IMG/VR virus record: IMGVR_UViG_3300045988_158233
From: a virus
Taxonomy: Duplodnaviria > Heunggongvirae > Uroviricota > Caudoviricetes
Length of the DNA: 64,000 nt
Direction: 5' to 3' (one strand)
This document shows, piece by piece, positions 8,272-51,515 of the stretch. A program made the translations under genes and the position numbers. Position 1 is the stretch's first letter. Each line of letters begins with the position of its first letter. Below the pieces are notes generated by a model. The model searched no databases. It worked only from the letters and a program-made list of their open reading frames with translations, and was not told the DNA's origin.

Positions 8272-9048
8272 ATGAAAGACGAAATTCAGAAATTGGCCTG
8301 TGACATCATTGATAAAACAGGTTTAGAAATCAGCGAGGGCAGTCGACTAGACATCATTGGAAAGGCCGTCAATACAGCAATGAATCATATCGCTGCTCGT
8401 ATGGACGAGATCCCGCTACCAGGGTTGCCTTATCTGAAAGTTGAGTTACACGTATGGGGCGAACCTTCTTGTGCACGGCGTTCTGCATTAGTTGTTTTTA
8501 TTAGCAAAGAAAACCCGCTCAGTCTTAAAGTGCAGGTTGGAGCATGGCTTGATGGCAGAGTGATCTACACAAATACCGTTTTTTGTCTTTCAAACGACGA
8601 AACTATTGAAGCGGCCATTCAAGAAGCAGTTCTAGCAATGCGCAGCAGCGGTTTGATGAAGAATAACTACGAAGAGTACTTGCGTTCGATAAGTGGTGAA
8701 AAGACATTATCTCTGAAAGCAGATTTCGTTACCCCGAAAAATCTGTTGGAAGTTTTGATTAATAAAGGGGCTAATAGTGCCGTAAATGTAATCAGAGAGA
8801 GTGAATACGCGTCTCTTTGGGATATGTGCAAAAGCCAGTTGGATCTTGTGCATATCGTTGTTGATGCGGGGAAGGCTTGTGATGGCGTAATGGCGGAATT
8901 TGCTGGGAAGATGGTCAGGATTGCTAACGAATTACCGATGATTAAGCAAGAGGCTAAATCATACGCCACCAATCATGTCACAGAGCTTCTTGCCCCTTAT
9001 CGCTTAGAAAGCGATCAGCGCAAGATGATTAGCTGGGGAAGTTGGTAA
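8272..9048 (+). CDS. hypothetical protein
   Basis: 258-aa ORF. Confidence 0.5.
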   Translation: MKDEIQKLACDIIDKTGLEISEGSRLDIIGKAVNTAMNHIAARMDEIPLPGLPYLKVELHVWGEPSCARRSALVVFISKENPLSLKVQVGAWLDGRVIYTNTVFCLSNDETIEAAIQEAVLAMRSSGLMKNNYEEYLRSISGEKTLSLKADFVTPKNLLEVLINKGANSAVNVIRESEYASLWDMCKSQLDLVHIVVDAGKACDGVMAEFAGKMVRIANELPMIKQEAKSYATNHVTELLAPYRLESDQRKMISWGSW

Positions 9049-9115
9049 GCTCTCTGTGTGTCGTTTTTTACGCAAATAATGATAGGTAAGCACAAGATTA
9101 TTTCTGGCGGTAATT

Positions 9116-9586
9116 GTGAAAGCTGATTTGTCAAAAATCCCTTCTATTTCAGGAAATAACGGTTATTCACTTCGTTGTGAGGAAGTAAAGATAAACGGTG
9201 AGTCGGCATATTGCAGCTATTCCGTTTGCCAGCACACCATTCTTGCCTTCAAAGAAAACCGTCTTCCTCGAACTTCTTTCCAGTCGTGCGCAACCGCTAT
9301 TAAAGCAGGCAAATGCAAGGCGTTAAAAATGATGGTTGAAGAGATTCGTAAAGGAGAATCTCTGTATTTCGAAGATATGACCGCACTCATTAAGGAGGTT
9401 GAAGAACGGAATAAACAAGCCAGAACTATAAAACGAAAACGTGACAGTGTAACGATTAGTAGCATGGTTAAGAAGAGCGCCACATCACAAACAGCGATCA
9501 CTGACGTGTATGCGGCGTTGCTTGAAGAAACAACAAAAGAAACACATGAGCAAATCGATCAACATATGGAGGCAAAACAACAATGA
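9116..9586 (+). CDS. hypothetical protein (start uncertain)
   Basis: ORF with GTG start; stop overlaps ligase start. Confidence 0.35.
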   Translation: MKADLSKIPSISGNNGYSLRCEEVKINGESAYCSYSVCQHTILAFKENRLPRTSFQSCATAIKAGKCKALKMMVEEIRKGESLYFEDMTALIKEVEERNKQARTIKRKRDSVTISSMVKKSATSQTAITDVYAALLEETTKETHEQIDQHMEAKQQ

Positions 9587-10905
9587 AAAAGTTGATCGCA
9601 CTTAAGCATAAGCTGGACGAAATGAAAGCTATGGGAACCAATGCAAAAAAAGAGGCATTGGCCAACATGGATGACTTTGAACAAAGCATGGTTTCATTGA
9701 TGCTCAACCCTTTCATCCGTTTTGGGGTAAAGAAATACAAAGTGGCAGAGCCGCTTAGTGAGTCCGTCCCAAGTGACGAAAAAGCCATTGATGTACTGAA
9801 TAAGCTGGCCTCTCGCGAGCTGACGGGGAACGCAGCAATAGCAGCTGTTGAGTCTATCGTGGCGTCAATGTGCGCCGATGGGCAGGACGTGTTCCGTCGT
9901 TTCCTCTTAAAAGACCCGAAAGCAGGTGTTGGGATTAGCCTATGCAACAAGGTTTTTGAAAATCCCATTCCGAAATTCGAGGTGCAGCTGGCGTCACCGT
10001 ATAAAGAAAAAGGCGACAAATACCCCTTCAAGCCAAATCCTAAAGCAAAATGGCCGATGATTGGCAGTCTTAAGCTCGATGGTTTGCGAGTAATTTGCGA
10101 GGTTATTGTTGACGAGGAAGAGGTTAACTTCCTTTCTCGTACTGGTAATCCAATCACGTCTCTCGATCACCTAAAGCCAGCAATGCTCGAATTAGGCAAA
10201 CTTTCAGGCCACAAACACATCTTCTTCGATGGTGAAGGAACAGCCGGTTCATTTAACCAGTCTGTATCTGCATTGCGCAAAAAGAACGTGCAGGCAATTG
10301 GCGCTATTTATCATGTTTTCGACTTCTTCCTACCGGAATGGCGGGCACAGGCTAAATCCAAAGAGTATGCAAAGACAGGTATGAAGCTGAAAGAGCGCCT
10401 GGCTATGCTGGTGGCGTTGTTTAAAAACGATCGCAGTGAAGGCTACGCACAAGACATTCACCTGCATCCGTTCTATATCATCCATAGCCACGAAGATTTC
10501 ATCGAACGCTTCATGAAACGCCTAGACGATAACGAAGAAGGGGAGATGGGCAAAGATCCGAACTCTGTTTACGAGTTTAAACGTACCCGCAGCTGGTGGA
10601 AGTTAAAAGACGAAGATTCAGAAGATGGTGAAATTATCGACTTTGAGCCGGGCGACCCGGACTCTGGTTTTGCCAACACGCTTGGAAAAATTGTTATTCG
10701 CCTTGAAAACGGTGTGATTGTTCGTGCGAGCGGCATTAAGCATAAATATCTGGACGAGATCTGGAACAACAAAGAGAAGTACCGTGGTCGTATTGTCGAG
10801 GTTCATTGTCACGAGAAAACGCCGGATGGCAGCTTACGCCACCCACGACTGAAATGGCCGCGTTGCTTACGCGATACAGAAGATCGAATCGGAGATAAAG
10901 AATGA
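9583..10905 (+). CDS. ATP-dependent DNA ligase
   Basis: Adenylation motif KLDGLR (KxDG), C-terminal ...SLRHPRLKWPR... typical of ATP ligases. Confidence 0.75.
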   Translation: MKKLIALKHKLDEMKAMGTNAKKEALANMDDFEQSMVSLMLNPFIRFGVKKYKVAEPLSESVPSDEKAIDVLNKLASRELTGNAAIAAVESIVASMCADGQDVFRRFLLKDPKAGVGISLCNKVFENPIPKFEVQLASPYKEKGDKYPFKPNPKAKWPMIGSLKLDGLRVICEVIVDEEEVNFLSRTGNPITSLDHLKPAMLELGKLSGHKHIFFDGEGTAGSFNQSVSALRKKNVQAIGAIYHVFDFFLPEWRAQAKSKEYAKTGMKLKERLAMLVALFKNDRSEGYAQDIHLHPFYIIHSHEDFIERFMKRLDDNEEGEMGKDPNSVYEFKRTRSWWKLKDEDSEDGEIIDFEPGDPDSGFANTLGKIVIRLENGVIVRASGIKHKYLDEIWNNKEKYRGRIVEVHCHEKTPDGSLRHPRLKWPRCLRDTEDRIGDKE

Positions 10906-12491: not shown

Positions 12492-12566
12492 GATGGTGTA
12501 GCTCAGCGGTAGAGCAGTTGGCTGTTAACCAACTGGTCGGTGGTTCGAATCCACCCACCATCGCCA
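12492..12566 (+). tRNA. tRNA-Asn (GTT)
   Basis: Cloverleaf by eye: acceptor GATGGTG/CACCATC, anticodon loop CTGTTAA, T-loop TTCGAAT, 3' GCCA. Confidence 0.85.
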
Positions 12567-12571
12567 ATTTA

Positions 12572-12658
12572 GGAGAGTTAGTCCGTAGAGGTAGCGGGGT
12601 AGACTGTAAATCTACTGTCATTGCGACTCGGGTGGTTCGACTCCATCACTCCCCACCA
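12572..12658 (+). tRNA. tRNA-Tyr (GTA), class II
   Basis: Anticodon stem GTAGA/TCTAC with loop CTGTAAA, long variable arm, T-loop TTCGACT, 3' ACCA; one A-C mismatch in acceptor stem, D-arm imperfect. Confidence 0.65.
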
Positions 12659-12662
12659 AATT

Positions 12663-12738
12663 GCCGGTTTAGCTCAGTTGGTAGAGCGCCTGCCTTGTAA
12701 GCAGGATGTCAGCGGTTCGAGTCCGTTAACCGGCACCA
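12663..12738 (+). tRNA. tRNA-Thr (TGT)
   Basis: Acceptor GCCGGTT/AACCGGC, anticodon stem CCTGC/GCAGG with loop CTTGTAA, T-loop TTCGAGT, 3' ACCA. Confidence 0.85.
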
Positions 12739-12962
12739 ATACAACGATAAGATCATTACGGTTAATCGTCGTTCATGTGCACAATGACTGGTCGAAAGGT
12801 AGTGATCTTACCGTTGTGGTGGATTCGCAGACTGATGCGATAGCTTTCTTGGATGTTAGGGAAATGCGGCCGCAAATCTTCCCTTTCGCGAGCGGTGATC
12901 GTCCGTAGTCCTAATTGGCTGCACCGTATGCCGGAGATTCAGTACCGGCTATCACAACGGCC

Positions 12963-13049
12963 GGAGAGTAGGGAGCATGGTGCTCAAGCGGTCTTGAAAA
13001 CCGTCCCATTGCGCAAGCGATGATGGTTCGATTCCATTACTCTCCGCCA
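12963..13049 (+). tRNA. tRNA-Ser (TGA), class II
   Basis: Acceptor GGAGAGT/ACTCTCC perfect, anticodon loop CTTGAAA, long variable arm, T-loop TTCGATT, 3' GCCA. Confidence 0.75.
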
Positions 13050-50084: not shown

Positions 50085-50339
50085 ATGAACCACTTTAAGG
50101 AAACCAACATGTCATACCCGACTAATGTCGTTGCGCTCGTAGAGAGCGATTTTCTGGCCCAGGCTCGTGAAATGATGAAAGATCGTGAGCAGGCCTTCAA
50201 CTTGTACGAATGGGCAATTAAGTGCTTGCATCTTGGCGAGCATCGCGAACTTGTTGAACAGCTTTTAGGTGAGTTGATCAATGAGGTGTTTGCCTTGAAT
50301 GTTCAACTACATGGTAGAGAAAATAATCAATCACAATGA
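50085..50339 (+). CDS. hypothetical small protein
   Basis: ORF; probable start ATG 50109. Confidence 0.35.
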   Translation: MNHFKETNMSYPTNVVALVESDFLAQAREMMKDREQAFNLYEWAIKCLHLGEHRELVEQLLGELINEVFALNVQLHGRENNQSQ

Positions 50340-50860
50340 TAGATAAGTACAAACTATTCATAAAGTGAATTGTAAGTGCTAAGATCTGATAGTTTCCAGT
50401 CGTAGACTGGAGGCTCGATCTGATGGGTGGGGGTAAGCGTCACTGGCGTCAGGTTTAAAAAAGCTCACTACCAGCGTAGAACCGGTGCCGTTTAGGTGTC
50501 GGGGAAGGGGGAACCAAAGTGAGCAGAGACAAGGGTCACTTTATGATTGTCGAGTCTGGGGTGTTTCGAGAGGTTGAATCCAGTACTCCCCTTCATAAAG
50601 TGTGGGAAGATCTCGGTTCTGGGGTGCTGTCATCCATAACTTCCCAAGTCTAAGCTGGCAGTAGACTTAGACCATAGCTTTTCAGGTTATGAAACGACCA
50701 GGTTGGTGAGGAATTTTATACTCACCTCCCTGGGAGAGTATTACCTGAAAAGACAACCTCTCACTTCGTTCGAGGTGAACTTCACTCACTTCGTTCGTTC
50801 AGTTCAGGTTTATAAAAACCTGTTCTGGGAAGTAATTTGTTTATTTTAATAATTATTAAC
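50340..50860 (+). other. structured non-coding region (candidate ncRNA or secondary origin)
   Basis: ~520 bp without ORF of 60 aa or more; several stem-loops, direct repeat cacttcgttcg x2, ends in alternating Pu-Py palindromes cacgcgtgtgcgcacgcg. Confidence 0.3.
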
Positions 50861-50921
50861 ACGCACGCGTGTGCGCACGCGCGAGGAAAAAATCGGCGCG
50901 GCGCTTGATTCAGGAGTTTAT

Positions 50922-51515
50922 ATGACGACGAAGACACCAGCCCGATCGCAAGCAAAAACTCGCAAAAAAGACAAAAACAAAAATTCTCCCCGCACCAATC
51001 CCACAACGCCTGTCGTAGAGTTCAACCCCCAGCTTAAAACCGTGAAAATCTTTAGTGATGGCTCTTGCCTCAAAAATCCGGGTGGCCCGGGCGGTTACGG
51101 TATCGTTCTCCAGTATCGTGGTGAGGAACGCGAGTTCTCAGATGGTTTTCATAGCACCACCAATAACCGCATGGAGATGATGGGGGCACTTATCGGGCTG
51201 GAGCGTTTGAAATATCCATGCAACGTTATTTTGTACTCTGATAGCCAGTATCTGAAAAACGGCATGACACAGTGGATGAAATGGTGGAAACGTAATGGAT
51301 GGATGACTTCTGATAAAAAACCGGTAAAGAATGTTGATCTGTGGAAACGTCTGGATGAGGCCGCAAGTCGACATAATGTTCGCTGGAAGTGGGTTAAAGG
51401 TCACGCCGGGCATCGTGAAAATGAAATATGTGATCGACTCGCGAAGATCGCAGCTTTTTCCGCAGCCGATACGCCTCACAAGAAAGACATTGGTTTTATT
51501 TACAACAAGTGGTAA
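50922..51515 (+). CDS. rnhA: ribonuclease HI
   Basis: [43 protein letters not shown] match RNase HI catalytic motifs; basic N-terminal extension. Confidence 0.8.

Follow-up and report, generated by a model that had tools for sequence, protein, structure and literature searches.

The locus in an SSU5-like phage-plasmid

The DNA examined here is a 64,000-nucleotide (nt) stretch of a Caudoviricetes virus (IMG/VR record IMGVR_UViG_3300045988_158233; the whole stretch is called the window below), identified by its sequence as an SSU5-like phage-plasmid of Escherichia coli. We focused on a non-coding gap at 50340–50921 and on the structured non-coding RNA (ncRNA) that it probably encodes. A 1.6-kb segment at this locus shared 98% identity with the Escherichia phage-plasmids PhiR41_1 and Cyrano, and 78–82% identity with Salmonella phage SSU5 and Klebsiella SSU5-like elements. 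Because the upstream open reading frame (ORF) of 84 amino acids (aa) stops at 50337–50339 and the RNase HI gene (rnhA) begins with an ATG at 50922, the gap measures 582 nt, not the 520 bp given by an earlier interpretation from the letters alone (the sequence-only reading), in which the region figured as a possible second (lytic) origin or a stable ncRNA.

The ncRNA lies inside a long + strand block of T4-like DNA-metabolism genes encoding UvsY, a gp32-like single-stranded DNA-binding protein, RecA, SbcCD, NrdAB, ThyX, Pnkp, DHFR, a DnaQ-like exonuclease and Dam. The plasmid initiator RepA is encoded on the opposite strand 17 kb from the ncRNA, and the terminase gene and the gene for the ParA-like CYRAN_99 are located elsewhere in the genome. 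In SSU5, an antirepressor gene lies ~1 kb 3' of the ncRNA. Four tRNA genes (Asn, Tyr, Thr and Ser) are clustered at 12492–13049, distant from the ncRNA, as called by ARAGORN.

Conservation and coding potential of the gap

Taken alone, the gap was 88–92% identical to its Salmonella and Klebsiella counterparts, above the level of the surrounding genes. Across Escherichia, Salmonella, Klebsiella, Enterobacter and Cronobacter relatives, the ncRNA core (~50391–50829, + strand) retained 86–99% identity, compared with ~80% for the flanking coding sequences (CDS). In 50-nt windows over ten representatives less than 97% alike, identity was 0.86–0.99 between 50420 and 50813, with a maximum of 0.992 at 50740–50789; the corresponding values were 0.73–0.87 for the upstream ORF, 0.80–0.86 for the RNase H domain, 0.49–0.64 for the N-terminal extension encoded by rnhA and 0.41–0.54 for the A/T-rich spacer.

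The element was present in 687 PLSDB plasmids, from Klebsiella, Escherichia, Enterobacter, Salmonella, Citrobacter, Cronobacter and others, and in 232 of 5426 complete E. coli genomes (4.3%), almost always on a plasmid of ~105–120 kb; in none of these plasmids and genomes was it annotated. Whole-RNA homologues outside the Enterobacteriaceae SSU5-like elements were not found by distant-mode BLAST against phages and plasmids, and further homologues were recovered neither by nhmmer with a family profile over all fetched loci nor via RNase HI tblastn.

Coding potential and covariation were evaluated on 59 distinct copies from relatives. The earlier claim that the region has no ORF of at least 60 aa holds for the + strand and fails for the − strand, where a 74-aa ORF (50782–51006) overlaps the start of rnhA. 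No conserved ORF was found in the 582-nt gap. A 44-aa + strand ORF (50519–50653), annotated in Cyrano as CYRAN_81 and lying wholly within the ncRNA core, was intact in 42 copies and interrupted by a frameshift or stop in the other 17, entire Klebsiella-type clades among them, and a 48-aa ORF was disrupted in 52 copies. Variable columns fell 10/8/9 over the three codon positions, that is, without codon periodicity. CYRAN_81 (L321 2680–2814) is a spurious CDS inside the ncRNA and probably an error of the public record; a probable annotation error also affects SSU5_090 (L002 4762–5526), a 254-aa "Rnase H" whose start falls within the ncRNA.

Promoter and ends of the predicted transcript

Sequence conservation falls just 3' of the upstream stop codon, where only two blocks, 17 nt apart, stay fixed. 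The first is a −35 hexamer, TTCATA (50357–50362, +), which follows TT(T/C)A(A/C)N at a fixed position in all lineages, and the second is an extended −10 element, TG-c-TAAGAT (50377–50385, +), whose TGnTAnnAT pattern is retained in every lineage within poorly conserved sequence. The two hexamers are kept in relatives, and their 17-nt spacing falls within the 16–18 nt of a sigma-70 promoter, as which the site qualifies. The version in the window (TTCATA-17-TAAGAT with the TG extension) scored under the 9/12 threshold of the promoter scan, and the homologous SSU5 site (TTTAAA-17-TAAAAT with TG) was called by that scan. A poorly conserved − strand promoter-like site (50369–50398, TGGAAA-18-TACAAT), directed leftward and so away from the ncRNA, overlaps the same region.

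A 5' terminal hairpin (50391–50415, +) begins 6 nt past the −10 element, at the predicted transcription start. All 19 distinct versions of it fold, at −3.9 to −16.8 kcal/mol, on stems that are of unrelated sequence between lineages (GUUUCCAGUC/GACUGGAGGC, GCUGGCAGA/UCUGCCAGC and GAUUUCGAC/GUCGAAAUC), a layout that suggests a 5' stabilising stem-loop. At the other end, a terminator-like 3' hairpin (50798–50829, +) has a covarying inner stem (GGUUU/AAACC, GGGG/CCCC and GGGA/UUCC) and is followed by AAGUAAU and then by a U-rich tract; the RNA may reach into this tract, up to ~50850. On the − strand of SSU5 (L002 4892–4904, corresponding to ~50893–50905 here), a GC-rich block and an A-run form a terminator-like hairpin followed by U7, which could block antisense transcription into the ncRNA gene; no such call was made in the window.

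A folded RNA supported by compensatory changes

The stem-loops described in the sequence-only reading were borne out by the fold statistics, with a minimum free energy of −209.4 kcal/mol and z = −6.8 on the + strand versus −5.5 on the − strand. RNAalifold on the 59 distinct copies returned 127 pairs in ~19 helices, and 99.8% of the cells in the 125 pairs that were scored were standard pairs. Compensatory double changes occurred at 8 pairs (84 cells), compared with at most 3 pairs (7 cells) in controls whose pairing partners were slid by 1–3 columns. The covariation score was 0.074, compared with at most 0.029 in the controls, and was reached by 0 of 500 shuffles, a statistic that kinship among the sequences inflates. 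G.U made up 11.4% of cells, and several pairs changed through G.U intermediates. When the identical helices were read on the − strand, 88.5% of cells were paired versus 99.8% on the + strand, a comparison biased by the prediction of the fold on the + strand. Many unpaired stretches were also invariant among the 59 copies, which suggests constraints beyond secondary structure.

Several helices of the structured ncRNA gene (50391–50829, +) were informative. Helix H1 (50417–50455, +) encloses the G-rich loop GGGUGGGGGU and contains three compensatory pairs (AU/GC, CG/UA and AU/GC). A domain that includes GGGGAAGGGGG (50463–50524, +) is closed by helix H2, GCUCAC at 50463–50468 with GUGAGC at 50519–50524, in which a U-A pair becomes U.G in 8 sequences and C-G in 17. 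The next domain (50537–50602, +) is closed by the 10-bp helix CACUUUAUGA/UCAUAAAGUG (50537–50546/50593–50602), where one C-G pair is replaced by U-A in 3 sequences and two U-A pairs by U.G. Hairpin H13 (50648–50672, +) adds two compensatory pairs and G-C/G.U/A-U variation at its base, and the 3' hairpin at 50798–50829 completes the informative set. The hairpin GGGAAG...CUUCCC with its inner helix (50603–50646, +) is nearly invariant over the 59 sequences, and its pairs are neither supported nor refuted by covariation because they hardly vary. The long hairpin H14/H15 (50679–50751, +) has 23 near-invariant pairs and an apical loop that is variable in sequence and length.

None of these structures corresponded to an Rfam 15 family. 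The Rfam covariance-model scan suggested by the sequence-only reading matched, at the gathering threshold, only three tRNAs in the whole window (12.5–12.7 kb); for 50200–51000 at E values up to 10, the best hit was a hepatitis C virus (HCV) element at 21 bits (gathering threshold 56, E 0.057). ARAGORN called no tRNA or transfer-messenger RNA in 50340–50921. The T-loop-like segment GGTTGAATCC noted earlier is indeed present at 50572–50581, but it was rejected as a tRNA element: it has no complementary T-stem, is replaced by GGTTGTGTTCC in one lineage and was negative with both ARAGORN and the Rfam tRNA models.

Expression in lysogens

Cyrano, an SSU5-like phage-plasmid of E. coli LF82, is 97.4% identical to the window at the ncRNA locus, and its CYRAN_81 annotation falls within the RNA core. 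Misson et al. included CYRAN_81 in their list of prophage genes with expression in the lysogen, where it stood 12-fold above the background of the prophage (PMC9928086 Table 1). Normalized counts were 117 for CYRAN_81, 9.5 for its upstream neighbour CYRAN_80, 8.4 for CYRAN_82 (RNase H) and 96 for the repressor CYRAN_45 (PMC9928086 S1 Table), and over ten samples from broth and macrophages the log2 values were 6.8–10.35 for CYRAN_81 and 3.1–5.8 and 2.6–5.0 for its two neighbours (PMC9928086). In these published values, which are given per annotated gene and may not be strand-specific, the ncRNA region stands ~12–14-fold above both neighbours and at repressor level, with a ~14-fold fall between the RNA and rnhA, itself at background. 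The gene-level counts therefore point to an abundant discrete transcript over the core in the plasmid state, mostly not continuing into rnhA.

In the same dataset, the most expressed Cyrano gene in lysogens was CYRAN_43, at 723 times background (PMC9928086 Table 1); it encodes a 184-aa hypothetical protein (OV696614 40268–40822, −) between the tRNA cluster and the integrase/repressor genes. The "moron" CYRAN_40 (L322 1145–1357), another probable annotation error, overlaps tRNA genes, and its signal is probably tRNA expression.

A twin-hairpin module shared with T4-like phages

The most conserved 50 nt of the ncRNA form a twin hairpin (50756–50805, +; identity 0.99), made of hairpin 1 (50756–50776) and hairpin 2 (50777–50805), which displays the loop UCACUUCGUUC twice. 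It contains the 12-bp direct repeat that the sequence-only reading had pointed out, TCACTTCGTTCG, at 50761–50772 and 50786–50797, and both copies are invariant in the 59 distinct relatives. The 10-mer of the repeat has only these two exact copies in the 64 kb; the module is unique in the window, and other hairpins with related loops occurred there at chance level.

A 45-nt match to the twin hairpin at 93% identity was found in T4-like metagenomic contigs (L104, L110 and L117), whose first stem reads CAUC/GAUG or CAAC/GUUG in place of CCUC/GAGG. With these contigs included, the hairpin-1 stem covaries through CCUC/GAGG, CAUC/GAUG, CAAC/GUUG and GUCCAC/GUGGAC, and additional phage contigs carry the loop UCACUUCGUUC on other stems. 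In L104, the module lies in a 918-nt non-coding gap (8928–9845) beside gp55, UvsW and UvsY. This contig carries the module twice, inverted and 135 nt apart, next to a non-coding block of 249 nt that L133 shares at 75% identity and that may be another ncRNA or an origin region. Other T4-like contigs with the module are L133 (1–483), L110, L117, L165, L149 and L148.

Outside the SSU5 family, the extended 22-mer was rare in IMG/VR (~8 contigs). Scans requiring the 11-mer twice gave, among the IMG/VR and GTDB matches listed, bacteria and archaea as well; the raw match count is meaningless because many matches are plain tandem repeats, as would be collected with any 11-mer. Among the matches listed, a perfect stem of at least 4 bp abutted the 11-mer in 18% of 349 distinct contexts, versus 0.4% expected, and this hairpin context is not explained by ascertainment. 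A d(CGAAG)-type GAA mini-hairpin on the − strand of the 11-mer was considered and dropped because wobble pairs favoured the motif strand 7 to 0.

Among the GTDB matches listed (L201–L320), the UCACUUCGUUC loop sits on unrelated stems in many bacterial phyla and in haloarchaea (for example, L281 1923–2023, L247 9–128, L215, L227, L260 and L296), and the haloarchaeal hairpins listed lie right after tRNA 3' ends. The AGAUUSY-loop-RSAAUGACA family consists of 36–41-nt tandem arrays, and the spread over GTDB is in part an ascertainment effect of the pattern search. No neighbour gene was common to the motif-bearing genomes, UvsW/UvsY/gp55 being shared only by the T4-like contigs. Rfam on 18 motif-bearing loci from other genomes returned only tRNAs and one unrelated small RNA, and a literature search by sequence returned primers only. 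The twin hairpin, which T4-like phages also carry, is probably a ligand- or protein-binding module.

RNase HI and the segment that precedes it

The RNase HI gene (50922–51515, +) is a separate neighbouring gene with a Shine–Dalgarno (SD) sequence, GGAG, at 50913–50916. Its product matches PF00075 over residues 40–178 (E 1e-45) and carries a 39-aa N-terminal extension with 10 K/R, which agrees with the basic extension reported in the sequence-only reading.

In some relatives, rnhA is truncated or absent beside the ncRNA. In three Klebsiella-type contigs (L074–L076), a 2-kb A/T-rich insertion replaces rnhA codons 9–92 and leaves the ncRNA intact; PADLOC identified JukA (E 6e-65) and JukB (E 3.5e-12) in the insertion. 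Conversely, another phage (L065/L066) has an rnhA product 89% identical in protein sequence downstream of an unrelated region and lacks the ncRNA. The ncRNA and rnhA are neighbours and not an obligate pair, because each is found without the other in relatives. The JukA/JukB anti-phage defence cassette lies directly 3' of the ncRNA (L074 556–2520, also in L075 and L076; homologous to ~50946–51200 here), a position at which cargo expressed in lysogeny may be inserted.

Between the RNA and rnhA, an A/U-rich spacer (50830–50858, +) differs among relatives in sequence and, through indels of up to ~25 nt, in length; it is possibly the rnhA promoter region. It is followed by the alternating purine-pyrimidine block of the sequence-only reading, which was confirmed as a 25-nt (CA/CG)n tract (50859–50883) containing cacgcgtg and gtgcgcac, with runs of 18–29 nt in all lineages. 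The tract has the long, uninterrupted, CG/CA-rich character of candidate Z-DNA, but selection for Z-DNA cannot be claimed because transitions and 2-nt slippage preserve the alternation unaided. An A-run (50887–50892, +) has 5–9 A among near-identical relatives, and the tract and A-run together (50859–50892) vary in length even between near-identical elements, as is typical of slippage-prone repeats. As a working reading, the spacer, the tract and the A-run would make up a promoter or leader region of rnhA.

A probable independent ncRNA gene and its alternatives

We consider it likely that 50391 to ~50829 (+) is an independent, lysogeny-expressed, structured ncRNA gene of ~440 nt, specific to SSU5-like phage-plasmids of Enterobacteriaceae, because conservation exceeds that of the flanking genes, compensatory changes maintain the helices, a conserved promoter and 5' hairpin are present, and lysogen transcriptomes show more RNA over this region than over either neighbour. 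The stable ncRNA named as one option in the sequence-only reading thereby gains support. Transcription would start at ~50391 from a sigma-70 extended −10 promoter and mostly halt at the 3' hairpin and U-rich tract, and because of this halt a constitutive promoter would leave rnhA and the downstream lytic genes off. The ncRNA would then act, probably in trans, as a stable folded RNA in the plasmid state. In its most likely mode, the twin identical 11-nt loops would bind or sequester a two-site or dimeric partner, in a role that would be regulatory or concerned with immunity or anti-defence, and RNase HI would be a neighbour rather than a partner.

Several points weigh against this interpretation. 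Both transcript ends are predictions, and the 3' hairpin is not a canonical terminator, since the U-rich tract follows the stem only after 7 nt and the terminator scan made no call. Recombinational spread of the segment could partly account for the low divergence, high conservation leaves few informative pairs, and the effects of kinship on the shuffle statistics, of the + strand fold on the strand comparison and of per-gene counting on the expression values have been given above. The ncRNA has no known partner, target or phenotype, and a complementary target for the conserved loops was not found within the 64-kb window.

The same abundant RNA could instead be the terminated leader of the rnhA operon, a cis-acting attenuator whose 3' hairpin terminates transcription in lysogeny and yields to lytic read-through upon a signal or phage factor. 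The ncRNA is co-oriented with and directly 5' of rnhA and the long + strand operon, and a terminator-like hairpin with a 14-fold drop in expression is what an attenuator in its off state would give. We nevertheless regard this as unlikely: ~440 nt of near-invariant sequence with ~19 helices is far beyond the needs of known attenuators, the hairpin and the SD sequence are kept apart by an A/T-rich spacer that varies and by a distinct GC-rich leader, the ncRNA is kept where JukAB destroys rnhA, and the Rfam riboswitch and leader models gave no match.

An RNA-primed R-loop origin, the other option of the sequence-only reading, would require the transcript to stay hybridised, RNase HI to trim it and a polymerase to extend it, while the twin hairpins of the displaced + strand load helicase or primase. 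A constitutive, ~0.5-kb, highly folded non-coding transcript has a general likeness to ColE1 RNA II, its 5' half is G-rich (GC skew +0.26 to +0.30), an A/T-rich stretch and rnhA lie downstream, and the surrounding block holds T4-like replication and recombination genes. In T4-like contigs, the twin-hairpin module has uvsW/uvsY or DNA polymerase genes as neighbours, and ncRNA-dependent prophage-plasmid origins have a precedent in mycobacteriophages (PMC7157519). The analysis yielded no positive evidence for such an origin, which we judge quite improbable, given an ncRNA that is expressed in lysogeny at repressor level and is separable from rnhA, and a RepA replicon 17 kb away in plasmids that carry a single replicon type. 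Promoter scans of the window and SSU5 found no conserved antisense promoter of the RNA I kind, which ColE1-like origins have within the first ~110 nt of the pre-primer; the only − strand promoter-like site (50398 to 50369) is upstream of the RNA start and non-conserved, and SSU5 has none. The U/C-rich 3' part, with its hairpin and U-rich tract, favours release over a persistent hybrid. Cumulative GC skew rises nearly steadily over 36–62 kb, apart from one flat step at 40–42 kb, and shows no turn around 50.8 kb, although in a phage genome such a profile is weak evidence. In term counts from a preprint on copy-number heteroresistance in such phage-plasmids, repA has 41 mentions and rnhA 0.

A site acting as DNA, for packaging, partition, recombination or iteron-type protein binding, is very hard to reconcile with the data. 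The 11-mer TCACTTCGTTC does occur in iteron-like, hairpin-free arrays beside terminase genes in some phage contigs (13 copies in L083, also in the L088 group), but only two copies are present here, the terminase and ParA-like genes lie elsewhere, a dedicated promoter and an abundant transcript serve the segment, and the compensatory changes, with their G.U intermediates, speak for a single folded strand over 440 nt. That the gap encodes a small protein, the 44-aa CYRAN_81 product annotated as a CDS in Cyrano and intact in 42 of 59 copies, is the least credible proposal of all, with the ORF broken in the remaining 17, a GTG start lacking a conserved SD sequence, variable sites spread evenly over codon positions and conservation that reaches far past the ORF limits.

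Returning to the independent ncRNA gene, a broader proposal is doubtful and is put forward tentatively: the RNA might found a new class in which large, ornate phage-plasmid RNAs are lysogeny-phase effectors (immunity, anti-defence or host-factor decoy) and the twin UCACUUCGUUC hairpin is a recognition module that moves horizontally and serves a widely conserved factor, either cellular or from T4-type phages. Such a module would account for the presence of the UCACUUCGUUC loop, on unrelated stems, both in T4-like phages and in intergenic repeats of bacteria and archaea.

SSU5-like phage-plasmids, which carry resistance and defence genes, are frequent in clinical Enterobacteriaceae, and an RNA that exceeds every neighbouring protein gene in conservation and reaches repressor level in lysogens likely matters for maintenance of the element or for changes to the host. 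Bacteria and phages have few large structured RNAs of unknown function, and all of these have so far been informative. A tractable host and inducible phages (Cyrano and SSU5) make deletion, trans-complementation, pull-down and structural work feasible. The records of CYRAN_81 and of the SSU5_090 start call for correction, and the spot directly 3' of the ncRNA is marked as an insertion site of a defence cassette (JukAB).

Comparison with known systems

Type III toxin-antitoxin systems have ToxI-like antitoxin RNAs, which resemble this locus in having a promoter, repeated RNA units, a hairpin and a downstream gene expressed ~10-fold lower. In contrast to them, the ncRNA has two units only, 25 nt apart and inside a much larger RNA. 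The assignment was rejected, as the downstream gene encodes a canonical PF00075 RNase HI that has no PADLOC match and is replaceable, and not a ToxN/AbiQ-, CptN- or TenpN-type toxin.

The immunity RNAs of phage-plasmids and satellites (P1 c4, P4 CI and N15 CA) are stable lysogeny RNAs of ~70–200 nt that arise from the leader of a lytic or antirepressor operon, are ended by termination or processing and pair with sites in their own transcript. Lysogeny expression and, in SSU5, the downstream antirepressor gene are shared features, whereas the present RNA is ~440 nt long and a search of the window gave no site complementary to its conserved loops.

ColE1 RNA II is likewise a ~0.5-kb non-coding region that is better conserved than its neighbours and gives a multi-hairpin RNA from a constitutive sigma-70 promoter, and RNase HI, biologically linked to it in ColE1, is genetically adjacent here. 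Unlike ColE1, the locus has no RNA I-like antisense promoter (promoter scans of the window and SSU5) and no Rfam match, its 3' end consists of a hairpin with a U-rich tract and not of a G-rich segment that forms a hybrid, the element has a RepA replicon, and the ncRNA is retained without rnhA.

In cluster A mycobacteriophages (RedRock, Alma and others), prophage-plasmid origins depend on an ncRNA that lies beside parABS in genomes without repA (PMC7157519). The likeness, which is by description only, is that an ncRNA is expressed from an extrachromosomal prophage in lysogeny; the SSU5-like elements differ in having repA and in placing the RNA within a lytic DNA-metabolism operon 17 kb from it.

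GOLLD and ROOL are Rfam families of large, ornate phage-associated RNAs. Unlike them, the RNA described here is confined to Enterobacteriaceae, lies away from the tRNA cluster (12.5–13 kb), is expressed in lysogeny and gave no match to their models even at E values up to 10. What it shares with them is a length of several hundred nucleotides, a large number of conserved helices, unpaired stretches that do not vary, carriage by phages or prophages and unknown function; previously unannotated and outside Rfam, it adds to this small group of large phage-borne RNAs.

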